From positions 20,000-83,999 of the IMG/VR virus record IMGVR_UViG_3300013902_000001: 64,000 bases of DNA; one strand, written 5' to 3'. Positions 9,417 to 34,596 of this stretch are shown here, piece by piece (position 1 is the first letter of the stretch; every line of letters starts with the position of its first letter). The DNA is from a virus. Lineage: Duplodnaviria; Heunggongvirae; Uroviricota; Caudoviricetes. Position numbers and translations under genes: made by a program. The notes under the pieces were generated by a model. That model was not told the origin of the DNA and made no database searches. It was given only the letters and a program-made list of their open reading frames with translations.

Positions 9417-12400
9417 TTATTCGTTCTTTATAAATTCTTGTAATCTAGAAAGAGAACCTCCGTTTTTAAATCTATACTGAGCTCGGAGTTCTTCAAAAGA
9501 ATCTTTATTTTTGAGCATTTCCTGAAGTTTTGGATTATTCTTTTCTGCTTTTAGCATATATCTAAAAGCTGCTTTATGAATCTTCTTATCCCCAACTGTA
9601 TGAAGTGCTTCTAATGATTGGATCTGGCTATCTAACGATTGTCCTTTTGTAGATCCAGTCTCGTTATTTGCAGATTTCGATTTAGATTCGGATTTAGACT
9701 TCTACTTAGAAGTTGAGGTCTCTTCTTTTACTATTGGAGTTTGAAAATTAGGTTTCTAAAATCTAGCAATATTTTCATTAAAAATATCGATTCCTGTATT
9801 TTTTCCTTGTTCCACTCCTTTAAAAGGCATAAATATATTTTTCTTACCTCCGGCTAATCCTAATTCCTATAATAAGAAATATTCTCTATCAGAAAGGACT
9901 TTTCTAGGTTTTCCACTCTTAGTTGTTCTTTCCGCTTGTAAGAAAGCTTGAATTCCAGGAACATTATAAGAAGTCTGCTCTATATCTTTAATAGGAGCAA
10001 TATATTTTTTAGCAGGAGCAGTTTCTTCGGAAGAAGCTTTTCCTAATTTCTTTTTAGCAGCATTTTTAATATTACTCAACTTCTAAAAAGCTCCTTGTTT
10101 TTCAGGAGCGAAATCAAAAGTCTCTTTGGTGTTATTAACTGCTTTTTGTAAAGAAGCATTAGCTTCTTTTACTTTTCCTTCACTTGCTAACCTTCTGGCT
10201 TCAGTGGCCGCTTCCGAAGAGATTGTATATTTCTTTCCAGAAGTTCCGGTTACTTCACTTGCTTTTACTCCTGTTTCTTGGGGTTTAACTAATTCAGCAA
10301 TACTGTGTCCAGATTCATTCTTTTGACGAGTTCTGACTGTTCTACGACCAGCTTTTAAACCGCCAGCAACTGTGGAAACTGTCCAGGAAATATTCTTTAA
10401 ATCATCACGAGTAAGATTACTAATATCACCTGTCATTACCTTTTCCCAGGATTTTCTATTATCCTCATCTAGAGCTACTCCCATTGCATTAAGTCCTGCA
10501 AATATTTTAGGCGCAGATTTTATTAAAAATCCGAAGATTTTTCTAGTTTTAGCAGCAGCTCCTAAGCCGGGAATTAAATTTAGTGCAGCTAATCCGAGAT
10601 TTATTCCAGCATTTTTAGCAACTTGCCAACCTCCTACCGATTCATCGGCAATATCAGCAGCTAAATTTGTCGCCATCGAAGTGATACCTGAACCAGCGGA
10701 AATAGCCTAGCCTACTCCAGTAGGAACAAAATTTGTAACAATTCCGACTAAATCTTGAGCTACTGCTGCTAATCTAAGAGCGTCTTCTGCCTTAAATTCA
10801 TCAGAAACTTTCTAATTACCAACAGCCCAGCGAGTGGCTTCACTATACCCGTGCTAAGCACCCTCATTTTGAGCTTGACTAATTACATCGAAAGCTGAGG
10901 TAGGGGATTCTGACGGGTTTTCTGGTGACTCCAGCTAATTCATTCTAGTTCCCTTTTTAGCATATATAACTCCACCGAGTTTCTTTATTTGTGCGTCAGT
11001 GTGTTTTATATTATGGTAAGCAATCTTAAACTATCTAATAGCGTTAGCGTGTTTTTTGAGGAGCGGTTTCATTTCAGGATTTCCTTTTAACTGTTCGATT
11101 ATTTGTAAAACAGCTGCTATAGACCCTGCTTGATCTGGACTTAAGTTAAAATTATCGATGATTGCACGTTGTTTTTCATTTAATTTAGTTAAGTCTTTTG
11201 TTCTAGTAAGAATATCCCACGCACTCAACACGTTATCTAACCATTCAACTGGATTTTCTTCTATTCTGGTAGTATTCCAGCCAGCAGTATTATAACTATC
11301 CCATAAACCAGTCCACCAGTTTTTATTAGACATGTGGTCGTGAGCGGTAAAAGAAGGAGTTTCTTGTTTCCAGGATGGATCTAAATCCCAGATTTGATAA
11401 TCATCTTTTACTTTTTCTCCATATCCATTATATTGATAAGAAGGTCTGTCCGAAAATTCAACCAATTCGCCATTTTCATTAAGCGTGAACAATTGAGTCT
11501 TTTCATCAATTATAGGTGTTCCATAAGGAGTTTTCTATAACGGTTTACCATCTTCAGAAACAGCTATTACAGGAGCGTCTCCTGCAAAATAATTAGAAAC
11601 ATCATAAAAAGTAAAATCCCCTCCCAGTGCATTCTAAAGAGCTAGAATCATCGAATCCTTAGAATAGATATCATCATTTATATTATCCTCATAATAGAGA
11701 TTTTCATTTCTATGATAGATTCCATTATCGTTATTAGGATCTATATAATTCTTATAAATCGAATAGAAAGGACTATTTACGTCAGTCAGAGTTCTAACAT
11801 CGCCAGACCAAACTTCACCAGTTTCAGGATTTACAAAAGTTCCTTGATTGTAACCACCTTGATCTCCCAGAGTGTAATTATCATTGATATAATTATATTC
11901 TTTCCCTGTAACGATATTTCCTTCCGAATCGAGTAAATAATTACGTCCATCCTTTGTTTGGATAGTGTAATTATTAGATTTTAGAATATCTTGAAGTTCT
12001 TTATTATAAGTATTAGTGGAAGGCGTATAACCATTAAATTTCTTAGCTTCAGCTACTGCTTCAGGATCGTAAAATTCATTAAAAATTTCTTTAAAATCAG
12101 AAGCATCTACTCCTAATTTACCGCTTTTAATGATATTAGTCAAATCTTCAAAAGCTTGATTATCCGTATAATCAGAAGAATTGAGTTTATCCAAAATCCC
12201 CTACAATTGCGGAATAGCAGAATAAGCATAATCCAAATTTGCTTTATCGAAATTATGAATAAATCCACTTTGATCAGAAGTTGATTTCAAACGATTAATT
12301 TGACTAATCAATCCTTCAGCTACTAATTTTACTCGATCTTTAATAGAGGCATCACCTTTTGCAAAATCAAAAGCTGGATTTTTCCAATTATAGGTAAAAT

Positions 12401-26937: not shown

Positions 26938-28074
26938 TTACTTTTGCTTTTTAAGATTTTTAATCTTTTCATCATTAGGTGTCTCATCATGAGCAGCTTG
27001 AACAGCCTCAATTACAGCATTATCAGAAGCTTTATTAGCATTAAACTCTGCCATAGTGGGAATTACATTACCAACAGGAGAAGCAAAATCAGATACTTTA
27101 TTAGCACTATCTTGGTTTTTAGGCAATGTCTTATAAGCAGCTTCAACAGTACCAATTTTTTCCAGCTCCTTCTTAAACAGTATAGAGGGATTTTTATTAG
27201 AATCTTCATCTAAACCATTATTCAAAACGAAGAAGATAATCGTAACCAATGAATGGTCAATAGCACCCATAACCTGATGACCGATGTGGCGGCGCTCGGT
27301 TACCATCTCAACCGTATACTGATCGTAAACCGACTTCGGCAACGGACGCTCGTCCATATTAACGCCATAAGGATTGATGTTAGCATCAGTCAACAGACGC
27401 ATATTCTGAACGATGTAGTTCGTAGTATTAACACCAGCATTACCTTCAGTCAAATCAAGAGTGGACTTAGCTGCAAGAATCTCCTGACGATTCTTATAAT
27501 TAAATGTTCCAATAACTTCGTAATCCTGATATCCAGTCAACTGTGCTGCAAGATTTGCGTTGTTATCGTGATTAGCAGGAACCTTAACCAAACGAAGACC
27601 AACTAAACGAGTGTAGCAGTCCATCAAGGTTACTTTATTTGTATCATCTATCGTGAAATACAGATTCTCAAAACGATTTCGCTCTGCTTTCATAGCTGCA
27701 ACAAGACCTGCAGTAGGATCCTCGCTATCAATCTTAATCTCAGTCTCATAAATGAAAGTCTGAGTATGATCAGGATAATTATCGTTGAACAACGGATGAA
27801 CACGATTCTCCTGACCGAGAGTCATTACCAGACGAATTACTTCACCTTTCTTCAAATCATTCTTAACGGATGAGAAATCCAGAGTAAACTTCTCTATAGA
27901 TTCGGCTACACCTTTATTCTCATAAATATGAGCAACATCTTTCTTACGAATATTGCACATATGATCGATCATAAGCGTTTCAACATCAGCATTCCAAACA
28001 ACTTTCTGATCTTTATTTGCACCCAACTTGCCAGCCAGGTCATTAATAATAAATTCTCTTGTAAATTGATACAT
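26938..28074 (-). CDS. Probable auxiliary capsid/decoration protein, 378 aa
   Basis: Intact ORF with no TAG; position between ring genes downstream of the MCP matches crAss-like synteny; followed by a terminator. Confidence 0.55.
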   Translation of the reverse strand: MYQFTREFIINDLAGKLGANKDQKVVWNADVETLMIDHMCNIRKKDVAHIYENKGVAESIEKFTLDFSSVKNDLKKGEVIRLVMTLGQENRVHPLFNDNYPDHTQTFIYETEIKIDSEDPTAGLVAAMKAERNRFENLYFTIDDTNKVTLMDCYTRLVGLRLVKVPANHDNNANLAAQLTGYQDYEVIGTFNYKNRQEILAAKSTLDLTEGNAGVNTTNYIVQNMRLLTDANINPYGVNMDERPLPKSVYDQYTVEMVTERRHIGHQVMGAIDHSLVTIIFFVLNNGLDEDSNKNPSILFKKELEKIGTVEAAYKTLPKNQDSANKVSDFASPVGNVIPTMAEFNANKASDNAVIEAVQAAHDETPNDEKIKNLKKQK

Positions 28075-28122
28075 AATTTCAATTTTTTAGTATAATCTAG
28101 TTATCTATAATAGATTAATCTT

Positions 28123-28941
28123 TTACTTTTGTGGAATAGATTGATTTACTGGTATATAGGTTTGTAATCTAGCATCAGATCCATTTTCCATTACCATTTT
28201 TACAATTTCCTTAATAATCTCATTAACTACATAATCTTGAAACTCCAAAACAGAAGTTGTGTCTTTTACATCATCTAATTGATCTTGATCTATAGTTAAG
28301 AACTACGGAGCTCGTAAATAAGAAATCTAAACAGATTCCAAATCAATCTTCTGAGGATCATTTCCACATAATATCTACATTACCGGCTAAGTTGAATTGC
28401 CGTATCTAGTTCCAGGCGTCCGATTCATAAAAGGGCTATTGTAATCAGTGATTACGTTGTCGTTAGCGTCTTTATCAGGATCAGTTTTAGCTGGATCAGT
28501 TTTGTATATAATATAATAATACGGCCTATAAATAGAAGGTCGCATATAATAATTAGATAAAACTTGAGATGCTTGATTTGTATCTAATTTATTTGCTCCT
28601 TGAACAACTCTTTTAACAACACTATCACATTTGGGTGTTTGCTTTTTAAAAATACAGGTGCAATTCAAAATGTGAACATAATCTTTTGGAAGATTTATAG
28701 TATAAATACATCCAAAAGCAGAGTCATTTTGATAAGCAGGAGCATTTATTTCATACATCAGATTTAATCTACTGAGATCGTCTGTAGCTTGCTAATCCTT
28801 TTCAAAAGCAGTGTATCTTTTATTGAAATATTCTTGAACCGCTTTATTTAAATAATATACAAAATCTGAGATTAGTAATGATGGAGCTTGAACTTTATTC
28901 AACTCCACCAATACTGCCTCATAAACATCCCTTACAGTCAT
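28123..28941 (-). CDS. Tail ring protein, 272 aa (code 15)
   Basis: MTVRDVYEAVLVELNKVQAPSLLISDFVYYLNKAVQEYFNKRY..D[TAG]QATDDL, matching the crAss ring-protein pattern (..QQTTDDL); TAA at 28123. Confidence 0.75.
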
Positions 28942-28948
28942 GTCTTAA

Positions 28949-29803
28949 TTATTTTGTTTTCTTCTGAAGCTCGGGAAAAGTTTCCTTAGAAATCTGTTCA
29001 TACAATACTTTATTATCAGGGTTCTGCAAGAATTCTACAGCACGATCCTGACCGCGTCCGATTACCATATCGTCACCGAAGTAATACAAACCATCTTTCT
29101 TTACAATAACACCACGTGCAATTGCCTCTACCAACAAAAGCCGAACTTTAGTCGAATTACCAGTATACAAATCTATAATTTTTTGAGGATATTTCTCTGC
29201 CTGAGTAAACAGCCAGTCTTCAATATCGCTAGAATTAGCTCTAGACATATCTTTCTCCAGCAATTTACATTTCAGAATCCACTGATCCAACGTATCGTTA
29301 GCAATGAAATTCTGAGCCTGAAGAATGAGTTTACGGAAGTCATTACGATTTTTAGCAGCAAGACCCGGATGTTCTACATACAAATCTGCCATACCGTAAT
29401 CACCCTGAACTCGACCAACTTCATCCACACTAACAGATCCGCCATCTACTTTATAATTACCAGCGGAATCTTTTGCAAATCTATCCTCTGCGATTAAACT
29501 AGAATTCTTAATCGCCTCCCAACGCGCTCTATCCAAGGGATTATCCAAGTCAAAAGTCGTTCCATGTTGAACAACAATAGGCACGTCACTCGCTACAAAA
29601 ACCTGTCGTTTAGCAAGATTTGGTTCATTGGCTTTTACTTTATCAGCCTCTGAAAGAATAAGCTGTCCTGTAACTGCGTCGCGTTCACGAACACAAGGCG
29701 GATACATTCCAGTCATTGGATCGACGCAAGGGGTAATATGATAAGTTTGTCCCTGAGTCTTTCCGTAAGCACTTTTAAGCACAATAATGTTACTTTGATC
29801 CAT
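28949..29803 (-). CDS. Conserved capsid-module protein downstream of the MCP, 284 aa
   Basis: Intact TAG-free ORF directly after the MCP, as in crAss-like genomes. Confidence 0.7.
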   Translation of the reverse strand: MDQSNIIVLKSAYGKTQGQTYHITPCVDPMTGMYPPCVRERDAVTGQLILSEADKVKANEPNLAKRQVFVASDVPIVVQHGTTFDLDNPLDRARWEAIKNSSLIAEDRFAKDSAGNYKVDGGSVSVDEVGRVQGDYGMADLYVEHPGLAAKNRNDFRKLILQAQNFIANDTLDQWILKCKLLEKDMSRANSSDIEDWLFTQAEKYPQKIIDLYTGNSTKVRLLLVEAIARGVIVKKDGLYYFGDDMVIGRGQDRAVEFLQNPDNKVLYEQISKETFPELQKKTK

Positions 29804-29836
29804 ATTATTACATTAATTCATTTTCAAATATCTAAA

Positions 29837-29870
29837 ATAATCCCCAGGGTCTGGGACCCCAGGGATTTAT
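29837..29870 (-). terminator. Hairpin after the MCP stop
   Basis: Imperfect inverted repeat ATAAATCCCTGGGGTC-CCA-GACCCTGGGGATTAT. Confidence 0.45.
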
Positions 29871-29881
29871 CTAGAATGGAA

Positions 29882-32800
29882 TCAGTTTTCAAAAAGAATA
29901 ACTGATTTATAAGGGTTGTAAACGGCTACTCCGAAATAACCACCCATAACATATTTGATGCCAGCAACAGGCGAAGCAACTTCACCATTACGGACACCTA
30001 CACCAGGGAGCGTATTCTCATAGATCTGTTTATCCGACAAGGTAAACATTTCACATGCGGGGCGACCGCTTGCCTTGTCTGCAGTAAGATCAATCAGAAC
30101 GCCGAAACCTTTATCACCATACTCGATAGACAAAGTTCTATCTACCTTAAATACAACGGTATTTCCGGCAAAAGTATACGCGTCATAAGTAGCACCAGCT
30201 TTTACATTACCGTTAGCAGCCTTAGAATAAATATAAGCTGCATCAGTGTGATGGTTAGCCAGGAACTCACTCATGGTGTTTTGAATATCATACCATAATT
30301 TTTCCGAGCAAATGAAAACAAAGGTATTACCCGTTACTTTGTCGCATTTTTTCGTCAAAGTAAGGATCATCTCATTCAGCAAGCTCGGAGTAAGCTTGGT
30401 ATAATTATATTTGGAAGCATAACGTTGAATCTGTTGAACGATACCATCGCCCGCTATGACGGGGCGCCCCTCCCTGTCATACAACATACTCTTACCGTTC
30501 TCGTCCATGGTGGTGTGTTGCCACAACATCATGTTATTACGAGCTTCCATAAAGTTGTCCAGAAGAATCTTCTTCTTGTCAGGCCAAGCAAATACCTTGC
30601 TCTCCCAACCATTAGCATCAGAACCGCGGCTCAGCTGAATAAACATCTGCTCGGTTGCCTCATAACGAGACGAAGCGTCGATGTCTACACGGATTTCTTG
30701 AATATAACCTCTGGCTTTTGCACAATTCGACTGATACTTAACAAACTGATTATCAATGAGTTACCTCACTGCATGGACTATATCTTGAATTTACATTCTA
30801 TTACCGTCTGTAAATCCCCTCCCTTTTCGCTTGCGCTACTCTACTAAGTTCCCTATAATAGATTTACTATTATAGACCTTTTCGATAGTCTCTGAACTTT
30901 TCCTTTCGGACTTAGCTGCTGATTGCCCTATAAGGGTTTCCAGCAATTAAAGAGGTGTTTTTAATTTTACACATATTCCTATGCGGACACAGGCCTTGTT
31001 AGTTGACCAGTGTCATGCCACTCTTGTTTCAAATTCAATACGTTAGCAATATGTTTCCATATTGATCGGACTATATCTTCATTATAGGTTCTATTACCGT
31101 TCCTATAATGCTCCCCATTTCGACCGAAGTCTACTCTACTCGTTTATTCTTTTAAGTATTTCTCTTAAAATATACTTTCGATAGTCTCTGAAGGTTACTC
31201 TTTTTGAGTCTTCCCTGCTGATTTCCATTTTACAGGATTCCAGCAATTAAAGGAGTTTTTAGTCAGCAATTTAATTCACCGACCCAACGAGTCTTAGCAC
31301 CAGTATAAGTAGAACCAGTTGCCAAAACTGCAGAAGCATCACCTGAAACAATGCGAACTTGGTATTCCCAGCAATTCAAATAATGAACATTTTGACTATA
31401 TCATTTACTGTTGTATTTAAATATATAATCTCCAAAATATCGATCTCCCTGCTGTATGTGCTGAATTTTACTAGCAGGAACTTTATATTTTTCTCTAACT
31501 GATTTTACAGAATCCATAGATTCTATAAAATTTCCAAATTTGTCATAAACGTCTATTGATAACTTCCGAACGTATTTTTTTGAAGGAACTTCATTTATAG
31601 GTTCAAACGTAACATAATAGTCTTTATACCAATTATTTCCGACTTGAAAAATATTACTAATTTTTGACCAGGAATTTAAATGAATAATAGGCATAATTTC
31701 TTTACCTTTATAAGAACCTAAAAAACTTCCATCTTTATAATATGCATAGAAAGTTTCTTGCGAATATTGAATCCGTGGTTTTGGTATAAAATAATCCACC
31801 AATTTGAAGGATAAATAATATTTACCTCGAATTAAGGATGCTCGCTTGATAGCTTGATAGATTGTTCCGATATTCTTTTTAAAATATTCTGAGCAAGCTC
31901 TCATAGATTCGAATTGTAAAATTAATTTTCCTTCTTTTGAATACACGTAAGTAGTTTTTTGGGCCTCAGTTCTTACTTTATATTCATTTATGTTAATTTC
32001 TTTTGAAGTGGACCAGAAATATCCTAAAAAATCGGTTTTATATGATTTTAGTGATTGGAACTGTCGACCATCTATTCCATAAAACTCATAAGCATCCGCT
32101 GATCTTTCCCAGATTTTTACTAGATTTCCTTCAAAATCAAATTGATACAACGGTTTAAATCTATCCTCAACTTTGCCACCTATAATAGCATTATAAGTAT
32201 GAGCTAGTTTAATGAAATTTTCATCTACTATCTCCCTTTCTTTATCATAGGCATCCTTCTCAGTGTTAAAAATATATAAAATCGTTCTTCTAAAAGCATC
32301 GGTTCCATATTTTTTAACTGCATATTGGAACGGAGTTTTTGGATACATATAAGAACTTGGTTGCTGAATTTTTACCCCACATCCTATATATCCATCAAAT
32401 ATAAATGGATTGCTAGTTCTATGAACTCCAACATAGATGCAATTTTGTCCATTTATTTGACATTTAACATTTTCAGTTAGATATACTATATATTTCACAG
32501 TAATTCAGTTTTTCGATATTTCTATCTACGGCTTTCGCCTAGTCGATGGACACTGCTCCCATCGGAGCCATGCTGCTGATTGTCTGTTTCTAGATTTTCC
32601 AGCAATTTAAAGAATTTTACTCGGACAATGCTAGGTTATTTATCCGATTTGCGAATAGGCGCATCCATTACAAAGAACTGTTGCTTGGTCGAGTCGATCA
32701 TAAACGTGTCTTCCAGCTCGTAATAACGCTCTGTAAACCACATCGTAATCTCACTCTGGTTAGCACCATCACCAACAGCAGGAGCTGCCATATACACATA

Positions 32801-33574
32801 CTTAATGAAATTCTGCTGAATTTCCCCAAAACCCAATAGTTTATCACTATTGTTTAGACCATATCATTACCTTATAATCTATTACCAATTATAAGGCACC
32901 TCCCTTTTCGATTAAAATCTACTCTACTCGATTATTCACTTAGATATTTCTTCTAAGTTATTCTTTCGATGGTCGTTGAGCCTTCCTATATTATAGGCTT
33001 GGTTGCTGATTACCACATCTTGCGATATTAGGCTTCCAGCAGTTAAAGAGGTTTTCCATAATAGCTCACGCTACTAGGGAGCAGGACGTCTACTCAAAAC
33101 TAAGGCTGTTAAGCTTCTGATACTTAGAACCTGCCTTCTCGCTATTGCGAACGATATTACCCATAGCTTCCGTCAGGAAGGTAGAGGTCATCTCGTCATA
33201 AGGCTGCATTCTGGACACGATACCCAAACGGGCGGGTTTTTCCAATCGTGTTATCGTTAAGCTTTTTATCCTAACTTCTATATATTACTATATAGTTCGG
33301 CATATATTTTCATCCCCGTGTAAAAGGATGTCGGACACTCTTGGGAATATTATATTTATTCAATTCCTATGCTCTACAATGATTAGAAGCCTTACGCAAT
33401 CTCCTAATTTATCTCGGTGTTGTCCTCACGGATGTTCACCGATTTTGCCCGATAATAATATCATCAATCTCTTAATGACACGGCAAATTACTCACCCAAA
33501 AATTTCGAAAAATCTTCGTATGTACGACTATGAGCCATTTCTGGCTTATGAGTCATAATATTTGCTATAATCAT
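29882..33574 (-). CDS. Major capsid protein, spliced from six exons (469 aa)
   Basis: Exons 33494-33574, 33092-33242, 32642-32826, 31278-31376, 31006-31035 and 29882-30745 total 1410 nt in an open frame: MIIANIMTHKPEMAHSRTYEDFSKFLG|EKPARLG..SFE[T|GG=W]EIQQNF..RKSD|NCWEYQV..RWVG|NLKQEWHDTG|FVKYQSN.. This resembles crAss MCPs. Every upstream exon ends in U and every intron ends in G. Confidence 0.9.
30746..31005 (-). mobile_element. Group I intron 5 of the MCP (260 nt, no ORF)
   Basis: P AATTGCTGGAA, Q AATCAGCAGC, R TTCAGAGACTA, S AAGATATAGTCC; terminal G at 30746. Confidence 0.9.
31036..31277 (-). mobile_element. Group I intron 4 of the MCP (242 nt, no ORF)
   Basis: P AATTGCTGGAA, Q AATCAGCAGG, R TTCAGAGACTA, S AAGATATAGTCC; P9 CAATATG-GAAA-CATATTG. 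Confidence 0.9.
31377..32641 (-). mobile_element. Group I intron 3 of the MCP (1265 nt) carrying a homing endonuclease gene
   Basis: P AAATTGCTGGAA, Q AATCAGCAGC, R CATCGACTAG, S ATGATATAGTC; the ORF lies between the P8 strands TTACTGT and ACAGTAA. Confidence 0.9.
31401..32498 (-). CDS. Intron-encoded GIY-YIG-family homing endonuclease with repeated NUMOD-like DNA-binding segments, 365 aa
   Basis: YIVYLT..IYVGVH..DGYIGCG N-terminus, then repeats such as LYQFDFEGNLVKIW, YVYSKEGKLILQFESM and VYDKFGNFIESMDS; GTG start, TGA stop, no TAG. Confidence 0.8.
   Translation of the reverse strand: MKYIVYLTENVKCQINGQNCIYVGVHRTSNPFIFDGYIGCGVKIQQPSSYMYPKTPFQYAVKKYGTDAFRRTILYIFNTEKDAYDKEREIVDENFIKLAHTYNAIIGGKVEDRFKPLYQFDFEGNLVKIWERSADAYEFYGIDGRQFQSLKSYKTDFLGYFWSTSKEININEYKVRTEAQKTTYVYSKEGKLILQFESMRACSEYFKKNIGTIYQAIKRASLIRGKYYLSFKLVDYFIPKPRIQYSQETFYAYYKDGSFLGSYKGKEIMPIIHLNSWSKISNIFQVGNNWYKDYYVTFEPINEVPSKKYVRKLSIDVYDKFGNFIESMDSVKSVREKYKVPASKIQHIQQGDRYFGDYIFKYNSK
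32827..33091 (-). mobile_element. Group I intron 2 of the MCP (265 nt, no ORF)
   Basis: P AACTGCTGGAA, Q AATCAGCAACC, R TCAACGACCA, S ATGATATGGTC; splits the Trp codon T|GG. Confidence 0.9.
33243..33493 (-). mobile_element. Group I intron 1 of the MCP (251 nt, divergent subtype)
   Basis: Removing it restores FLG|EKP. Core elements are AAAATCGGTGAA, GTAGAGCATAG and AAAATATATGCC, giving P7 GCAUA/UAUGC; the exon ends in U and the intron ends in G. Confidence 0.8.
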
Positions 33575-33618
33575 ATTATCTTATTTTATATATTAAAAGA
33601 TTGAAGGCTTATTACACG

Positions 33619-34596
33619 TTAAGCCTTCTTGTTTACTACGGTTGCTTTTTTGACGTCTCGCCTAGCCTCTGCGAGTTTAGCTTTGTAATAATCCTCAACC
33701 GCACGAAATGCTTCATCGCCTTTAAGGGCATACCATGCCATCTTAAACATCATTTCCGGATTATTATAAAATTTATAAAAATCTGTTTGGCCAGTTACTT
33801 CATCTTGATTCAAAATGCAGGAAAGCACTTCATTCTTGTCTTGATTATCTAACTCCAACCCGTTAATTACATTAGTATTACGAGCTACTTGAATCAAATT
33901 ATCTTTTAGCTGTTCCCACTGTTGCTGTTGTTCAGCTTCAGCGGCTTTTGCTTCTGCTTCTTGCTGGTCTGTTTCCATCTGCTTATACTCTTCTCGGAGA
34001 GCTTTTACTTTCCTATTATAAAGAGTTTCATTTTCCTTCTCTTTCTCGAGTATATTCTCAATCTCATCTGCGTCTTTCTCTCGGTCGAAACCGTATCTAT
34101 CTATCAAGTCAAAACGAAATAGATCATCGTCACTAACTTCATCTACTGTCGAAGTCTTCTTACCAGACATCTCAGCGATCGTTTGTTCACGAATCGATTT
34201 CGCAAAACCATTCAAATCTGTATTATGATCTCTTAAGAAATTAATCACCTCTAATTCATTATCAGACAACATAGGTTGATTAACACTTTCTAAAAGTGCA
34301 ATCTTCTCGTCATCAGACAAATCATCAAAAGTAACTTCTTCCTCTTCGTTATCTTCATTCAAAATTCGGATTTTAGACTTATCTACGGATTTACTTCTAA
34401 GATATTTTGTCATAAAATCCCCTTCCTCCTCCGTCTTAGCGGGCTCAGAATCAGAACCAGGTTCTTGATTAGTTTCTCCATCAAAGATGCTTTCATCAGA
34501 ATCAGGATCATAACTAATATCCTCATCATTTACTGGTTCTACAATAGGTTCATTAGAGGGTTCTGGGGAACCCCACAATTCGTCGTCTAAATTCAT
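33619..34596 (-). CDS. Acidic, coiled-coil protein upstream of the MCP (scaffold-like), 325 aa
   Basis: Intact TAG-free ORF, very D/E-rich, in the conserved position upstream of crAss MCP genes. Confidence 0.65.
   Translation of the reverse strand: MNLDDELWGSPEPSNEPIVEPVNDEDISYDPDSDESIFDGETNQEPGSDSEPAKTEEEGDFMTKYLRSKSVDKSKIRILNEDNEEEEVTFDDLSDDEKIALLESVNQPMLSDNELEVINFLRDHNTDLNGFAKSIREQTIAEMSGKKTSTVDEVSDDDLFRFDLIDRYGFDREKDADEIENILEKEKENETLYNRKVKALREEYKQMETDQQEAEAKAAEAEQQQQWEQLKDNLIQVARNTNVINGLELDNQDKNEVLSCILNQDEVTGQTDFYKFYNNPEMMFKMAWYALKGDEAFRAVEDYYKAKLAEARRDVKKATVVNKKA

Follow-up and report, generated by a model that had tools for sequence, protein, structure and literature searches.

A crAss-like phage with five group I introns in its major capsid gene

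The window analysed here, a stretch of 64,000 nt, is part of a complete virus record of 172,250 bp with terminal repeats. At positions 29882-33574 it holds a major capsid gene of which 62% of the span is intron. The locus raises the question of how one intact capsid protein could be obtained from such a gene, and why introns have piled up in it. The observations described below suggest that the capsid gene is functional and very probably carries selfish, efficiently spliced and independently acquired group I introns, at a hotspot common to the phage family.

Exon-intron map and splice junctions

The major capsid gene of this 172-kb crAss-like phage comprises six exons and five group I introns, all on the minus strand. 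Exon 1 (33494..33574, 81 nt, codons 1-27) begins with ATG and is followed by intron 1 (33243..33493, 251 nt, phase 0, after codon 27; RF00028 44.7 bits). Exon 2 (33092..33242, 151 nt) precedes intron 2 (32827..33091, 265 nt, phase 1, within codon 78; 67.7 bits), and exon 3 (32642..32826, 185 nt) precedes intron 3 (31377..32641, 1265 nt, phase 0, after codon 139; 32.4 bits for its 5' half), whose core is split by an endonuclease ORF. Exon 4 (31278..31376), with 99 nt a multiple of three in length, is separated by intron 4 (31036..31277, 242 nt, phase 0, after codon 172; 77.4 bits) from the micro-exon 5 (31006..31035, 30 nt), after which intron 5 (30746..31005, 260 nt, phase 0, after codon 182; 82.9 bits) leads to exon 6 (29882..30745, 864 nt), comprising 287 codons and TGA. 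Introns 1, 2, 4 and 5 are devoid of an ORF. Joining of the exons (81 + 151 + 185 + 99 + 30 + 864 nt) gives the 1410-nt open frame claimed in the preliminary description, encoding 469 aa followed by TGA, with neither an internal stop nor a TAG. Terminator-like hairpins, each a pattern match only, lie on the minus strand in the interval that separates the 325-aa gene upstream from the start of the capsid gene (33603..33628) and directly 3' of the capsid stop (29839..29867); the promoter scan remained at chance level (21 vs 21.8).

The identity of the gene as major capsid is borne out by a match to the crAss capsid family PF23898 at 46.4 bits (cut-off 27) and by a weak match to crAss001 gp32 (7QOF, E 2e-4). 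Exon 6 alone matches PF23898 at E 2.5e-12 and has 82 homologs. Standard annotation calls just a 254-aa fragment of the gene, as would be expected of a decayed or mis-assembled relic whose capsid function is supplied by another gene. This is extremely improbable, as the frame is restored exactly, the best identity of each exon to intact homologs is 58-89%, the ribozyme cores carry compensatory changes, and the complete genome with its terminal repeats contains one PF23898 match, this very gene.

Over its full length (469/469), the spliced product can be aligned gaplessly, at 65-71% identity, with 11 intron-free homologs that are likewise of 469 aa; in the whole set of 37 aligned rows, any gap is more than 4 residues away from every junction. 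Spliced alignment with a profile of intron-free homologs alone, free of any splice rule, independently returns intron lengths of 251, 265, 1265, 242 and 260, and with a mild U/G preference added, four junctions are the same as in the preliminary description. For intron 3 the profile favours a 5-nt slip, which violates the U rule; the boundary as first read is retained because P1 (z -2.9) and P10 (-10.7 kcal/mol) support it over the slip. A shift by one base at junction 1, 4 or 5 leaves the protein unchanged, and here the U/G rule decides. Other same-length U|G shifts were rejected, as they introduce a stop or alter conserved residues. In L077, the closest intron-free allele, the codons run on without a break at each of the five positions, as expected. 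Gapless homolog alignment, spliced alignment and the P1/P10 pairings thus show the five intron coordinate pairs first proposed to be right to the base, and the accompanying rules also hold throughout: U ends every exon preceding an intron and G ends every intron (five of five).

When the gene is read without splicing, all five readings stop within 13 codons of the 5' site under either code. Such stops had been noticed after exons 1, 3, 4 and 5; under TAG=Gln, read-through of exon 2 likewise ends, in a TGA at the 9th codon. As the genome has a single capsid gene, production of the capsid protein should need five splicing events. The preliminary description made it dependent on multi-step self-splicing; the requirement for five events at a sole gene stands, and the structure of the introns points to splicing without protein help, while splicing in vivo is what we infer from the locus as a whole.

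Ribozyme cores, guide pairings and the endonuclease of intron 3

All five introns match Rfam RF00028, as anticipated from their group I cores, three of them (introns 5, 4 and 2) above the cut-off; the score of intron 1 is below it. The RF00028 alignments together with P7 give a core of P3, P4, P6, P7 and P8 with a G-C guanosine-binding pair in every intron, the 3' core of intron 3 having been read by hand as the ORF splits it. Intron 1 has a divergent core (P4 CGGUG/CACCG, P7 GCAUA/UAUGC) and represents a different lineage from introns 2-5, and P7 of intron 2 (GACCA/UGGUC) is a compensatory change. Introns 2-5 look IA2-like, with P/Q/R/S motifs that resemble those of this subgroup. An insert of ~60 nt separates P7 from the P3 3' strand in introns 2, 4 and 5, and a shorter one occupies this place (that of P7.1/P7.2) in intron 3. 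In all 39 family introns compared, P7 is completely paired; its G-C binding pair never varies, and its other pairs covary, window introns 1 and 2 included; as the script sought the best-pairing strands, the covariation weighs more than the 39/39.

The guide pairings mostly favour their own sites. Each 5' site of the window has a P1 with a U.G pair, with z of about -3 in introns 2-5 and 7 bp in intron 4; that of intron 1 is the weakest (5 bp, -3.6 kcal/mol, z 0.1). P10 is just 3 bp long in intron 1, reaches 4 bp in intron 2 and 7 bp in both intron 4 and intron 5, and is bulged and strong in intron 3. Across the family, the own exon is better than exons of other sites for the P1 guide in 38 of 39 introns and for P10 in 36. 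The first 7 nt of the 30-nt exon 5 take part in P10 of intron 4 and the last 10 nt in P1 of intron 5; since the two guides use separate ends of the exon, neither intron has to compete with the other. The guide region of intron 1 pairs more strongly with the final part of exon 5 (-10.9) than with exon 1 (-2.8), a pairing dismissed as probable chance because the stretch lies in P2 and is absent from the homolog in L005. The opening of exon 4 (31365-31376, minus strand) copies the intron P motif, so that P4 of intron 3 is a second possible partner for the guide of that intron; the Cys-Trp encoded there is also present in intron-free L077, and the copy may be fortuitous.

The proposed mechanism is ordinary group I splicing. 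Each intron would fold its own ribozyme and be removed by the two-step guanosine-initiated reaction, the 5' site being set by the U.G pair of P1 and the 3' site by P10 and the terminal G. The in-frame stop at most 13 codons past each 5' site would free ribosomes from unspliced RNA.

Intron 3 contains an ORF for a putative homing endonuclease with a GIY-YIG-type N-terminus (31401..32498, minus strand, 365 aa, GTG start, NUMOD1-like repeats, no TAG), which had been absent from the earlier reading of the gene. It matches phrog_314 at E 1e-15 and TIGR01453 at 39.8 bits (E 5e-10), below the cut-off of 56; a comparison with solved structures (PDB) gave no match. The Tyr/Gly, Glu87 and Asn103 motifs are kept in 8 homologs, and the NUMOD1 match is weak; the protein is presumed to be an active endonuclease. 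On our reading the ORF appears to begin in the 5' strand of P8 and to end in J8/7. Its first codons (K-Y-I-V, family-wide) mimic the intron S element (32480-32500, minus strand) and mislead Rfam; this microhomology might aid entry of the ORF into P8.

Capsid introns across the phage family

Spliced alignment of ~80 fetched loci yielded 43 distinct complete alleles, a non-random sample in that fragments were sought deliberately and the alleles are related. Loci were found with alignment queries; a search with the lone exon-6 protein gave none. Introns are absent from 26 of these alleles, whereas 3 have one, 5 have two, 5 have three, 1 has four and 3 have five. The five introns of the window had been described as an extreme case, which is overstated: two other lineages (L022 and L070/75/76) also have five, at site sets differing from that of the window, L003, a close relative on a truncated contig, has at least four, and a Zeta capsid gene in five fragments has been published. 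Five introns is a high number, yet not a unique one. The confinement of all introns to the first 182 codons, likewise part of the preliminary description, holds for this allele and is peculiar to it; the family uses at least 19 sites, from codon 27 to codon 451. Conservation at the insertion sites slightly exceeds the average (0.71 vs 0.66, P 0.017), and micro-exons of 18 and 21 nt occur in L003, L061 and L055.

Other genomes also carry introns at sites 27, 77, 172 and 182; at the site of intron 3 (codon 139) no other sampled allele has one. Well-supported clades of the intron tree mostly unite same-site introns of different genomes; the bootstrap is not fully settled and intron 3 lies on a long branch. 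Introns 1 and 5 cluster with same-site introns elsewhere (support 99-100), the nearest to intron 1 being that of L005 (68% identity), and intron 5 has a counterpart at its site in L003 with 77% identity. A same-site sister of introns 2, 3 and 4 is missing from the tree, and sites 172, 277 and 451 hold more than one intron lineage each. Grouping by site rather than by genome fits independent homing. A relative with 89% exon-6 DNA identity has introns at 188 and 277 that are absent from the window, which indicates fast intron turnover.

Local copying of one founder intron by reverse splicing inside this genome would account for the IA2-like core common to four of the five introns and for their location within 155 codons, tighter than the site use of the family (P ~0.016, post hoc). 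It is very unlikely and largely refuted, as the window introns are mutually just 36-66% identical, introns 1 and 5 are closer to their same-site counterparts in other genomes, and four of the five sites are used elsewhere.

Independent acquisition, in contrast, is consistent with the distribution of endonucleases. Relatives of the intron 3 enzyme (26-50% identity) are encoded in capsid introns at ten further sites, 11 in all; LAGLIDADG ORFs occur at sites 27 and 283, and several of the capsid-intron copies have decayed. A single-copy, conserved capsid gene would thus offer homing endonucleases, chiefly those of one GIY-YIG family, a family-wide target, and the introns would pile up because of it. 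ORF-less introns would have lost their endonuclease and may survive by hitchhiking in gene conversion begun by a neighbour such as intron 3. Among the 17 complete intron-bearing alleles, short introns without an ORF-sized partner number 0 (expected 2.8, P 0.015). This 'never alone' pattern and the clustering of the window introns fit hitchhiking with intron 3 without proving it; the sample is small and related, and the pattern is also predicted by endonuclease decay in heavily invaded lineages.

At site 27 of L068, L069, L071 and L074 both splice rules are unsatisfiable, and P7 is standard. To stay in frame, splicing of these introns has to use either a terminal A or a G as the last base of the 5' exon, and they are possibly terminal-A group I introns.

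Known systems and genome context

The nearest counterpart is the Zeta crAss-like cMAG OLRF01000054, the capsid gene of which lies in five fragments with four intervening segments, three of them with protein domains (Yutin 2021, PMC7886860). Intron-rich capsid genes of some crAss-like groups were also mentioned in the preliminary description. The same source gives Zeta genomes as 145-192 kb in size with up to 14 introns, partial stop-codon recoding and inteins. In both genes the interruptions are group I introns, some of which encode protein domains, and the capsid exons are free of recoded stops. The present gene has six exons with exact junctions, and differs also in that four of its introns are ORF-less and that a family site map accompanies it; the published gene is not base-resolved in the text consulted. 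A search of the literature, within the searchable library only, turned up no capsid gene with five resolved introns, so that the published example is exceeded by one. By size, recoding and intron load the phage would belong to the Zeta group; the nearest GenBank phages are unannotated and 42-46% identical.

Staphylococcus phage Twort orf142 has three introns, two of them nearly identical, with exon skipping detected by RT-PCR (Landthaler and Shub 1999; PMC10136302). Two IA2 introns there, and two IA2-like ones here, surround a short exon (23 nt vs 30 nt); unlike in Twort, the introns flanking the short exon are 63% identical in the present gene. For introns 3, 4 and 5 the best partner of each guide is the 5' exon of the same intron, so that less skipping is predicted than in orf142. 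A capsid intron has been reported from lactococcal phage Tuc2009, and that of mycobacteriophage LittleE was found to be spliced by RT-PCR and N-terminal sequencing (PMC3706429); LittleE has a single capsid intron with an HNH enzyme, whereas five are present here with a GIY-YIG-type endonuclease. Polymerase and terminase genes of Bastillevirinae carry up to three IA-type introns per gene (PMC11878797), and Jug phages 18.5 introns per genome, many backed by metatranscriptome reads (PMC12880540); these lie in other genes of other phage groups, with fewer per gene than here. Early stops past the 5' site are familiar from group I introns of bacteria and phages, and co-conversion is likewise established (PMC3984707). 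The present results provide exact junctions for a heavily split essential gene, and reveal an intron hotspot with one endonuclease family at 11 of its sites. The gene is thus a convenient system for the tolerance of serial splicing by a high-copy protein, for hitchhiking of ORF-less introns and for target change of GIY-YIG enzymes.

Reading TAG as Gln raises the coding density of the genome from 49% to 88%, and this reading was accepted while TGA=Trp was rejected. TAG codons are almost confined to minus-strand late genes. None occur in the capsid gene or in the neighbouring genes for 325, 284 and 378 aa (window 26938-34596), vs 28% of Gln codons in other late genes; capsid genes of some relatives contain 1-3 TAG. 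An amber tRNA(CUA) is itself interrupted by a 225-nt group I intron, which splits the anticodon as CU|A (L063:15672-15896; 99672-99896 of the genome; minus strand). ARAGORN detects this tRNA after removal of the intron or with its intron option, not otherwise; a relaxed run gave noise and was disregarded. Such a split tRNA could explain recoded crAss genomes in which a suppressor is not detectable (PMC7886860, PMC12386605).

These features invite the suggestion that the introns were co-opted as a timing or dosage gate, with capsid splicing and the split amber tRNA, on which late genes with TAG codons would depend, gating the late programme. Of the eight introns detected in protein genes of the genome, five are packed into 1.4 kb of coding sequence (binomial ~4e-9), the tRNA(CUA) anticodon holds an intron, and TAG makes up 0 of the 19 capsid Gln codons (P 0.002 against the other late genes). 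A gate is nevertheless quite unlikely: with 26 of 43 alleles intron-free and sets differing among close relatives, none of the positions is indispensable, the clustering is accounted for by homing into a conserved target, and no riboswitch-like or other regulatory elements were seen. A joint reading, in which all four ORF-less introns move together with intron 3 as one unit and splicing of capsid mRNA and amber tRNA serves as a common late gate, is unlikely as well. Selfish introns at a homing target remain the preferred explanation.

The genome has about ten group I introns, of which the capsid gene holds about half. Rfam scans of genome pieces omitted three that are visible in the sequence, and direct reading was preferred. 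A 304-nt intron (L064:8324-8627, minus strand) lies directly 5' of the DxDxD motif of a putative RNA polymerase gene, as read from the sequence, and its splicing fuses two ORFs into a frame of ~1980 aa. An SF2 helicase gene has a 233-nt intron in motif VI (L066:2968-3200; spliced protein 408 aa), and a tRNA-Leu(UAA) has one of 256 nt (L067:6651-6994). An ORF-bearing intron at L066 ~9870-11250, near 153,900-155,200 of the genome, has a core like that of window intron 1. A tmRNA is present at L067:15492-15848, and a late protein of 1172 aa with an internal LAGLIDADG domain (L063:1957-5475, minus strand) is probably a terminase with an intein.
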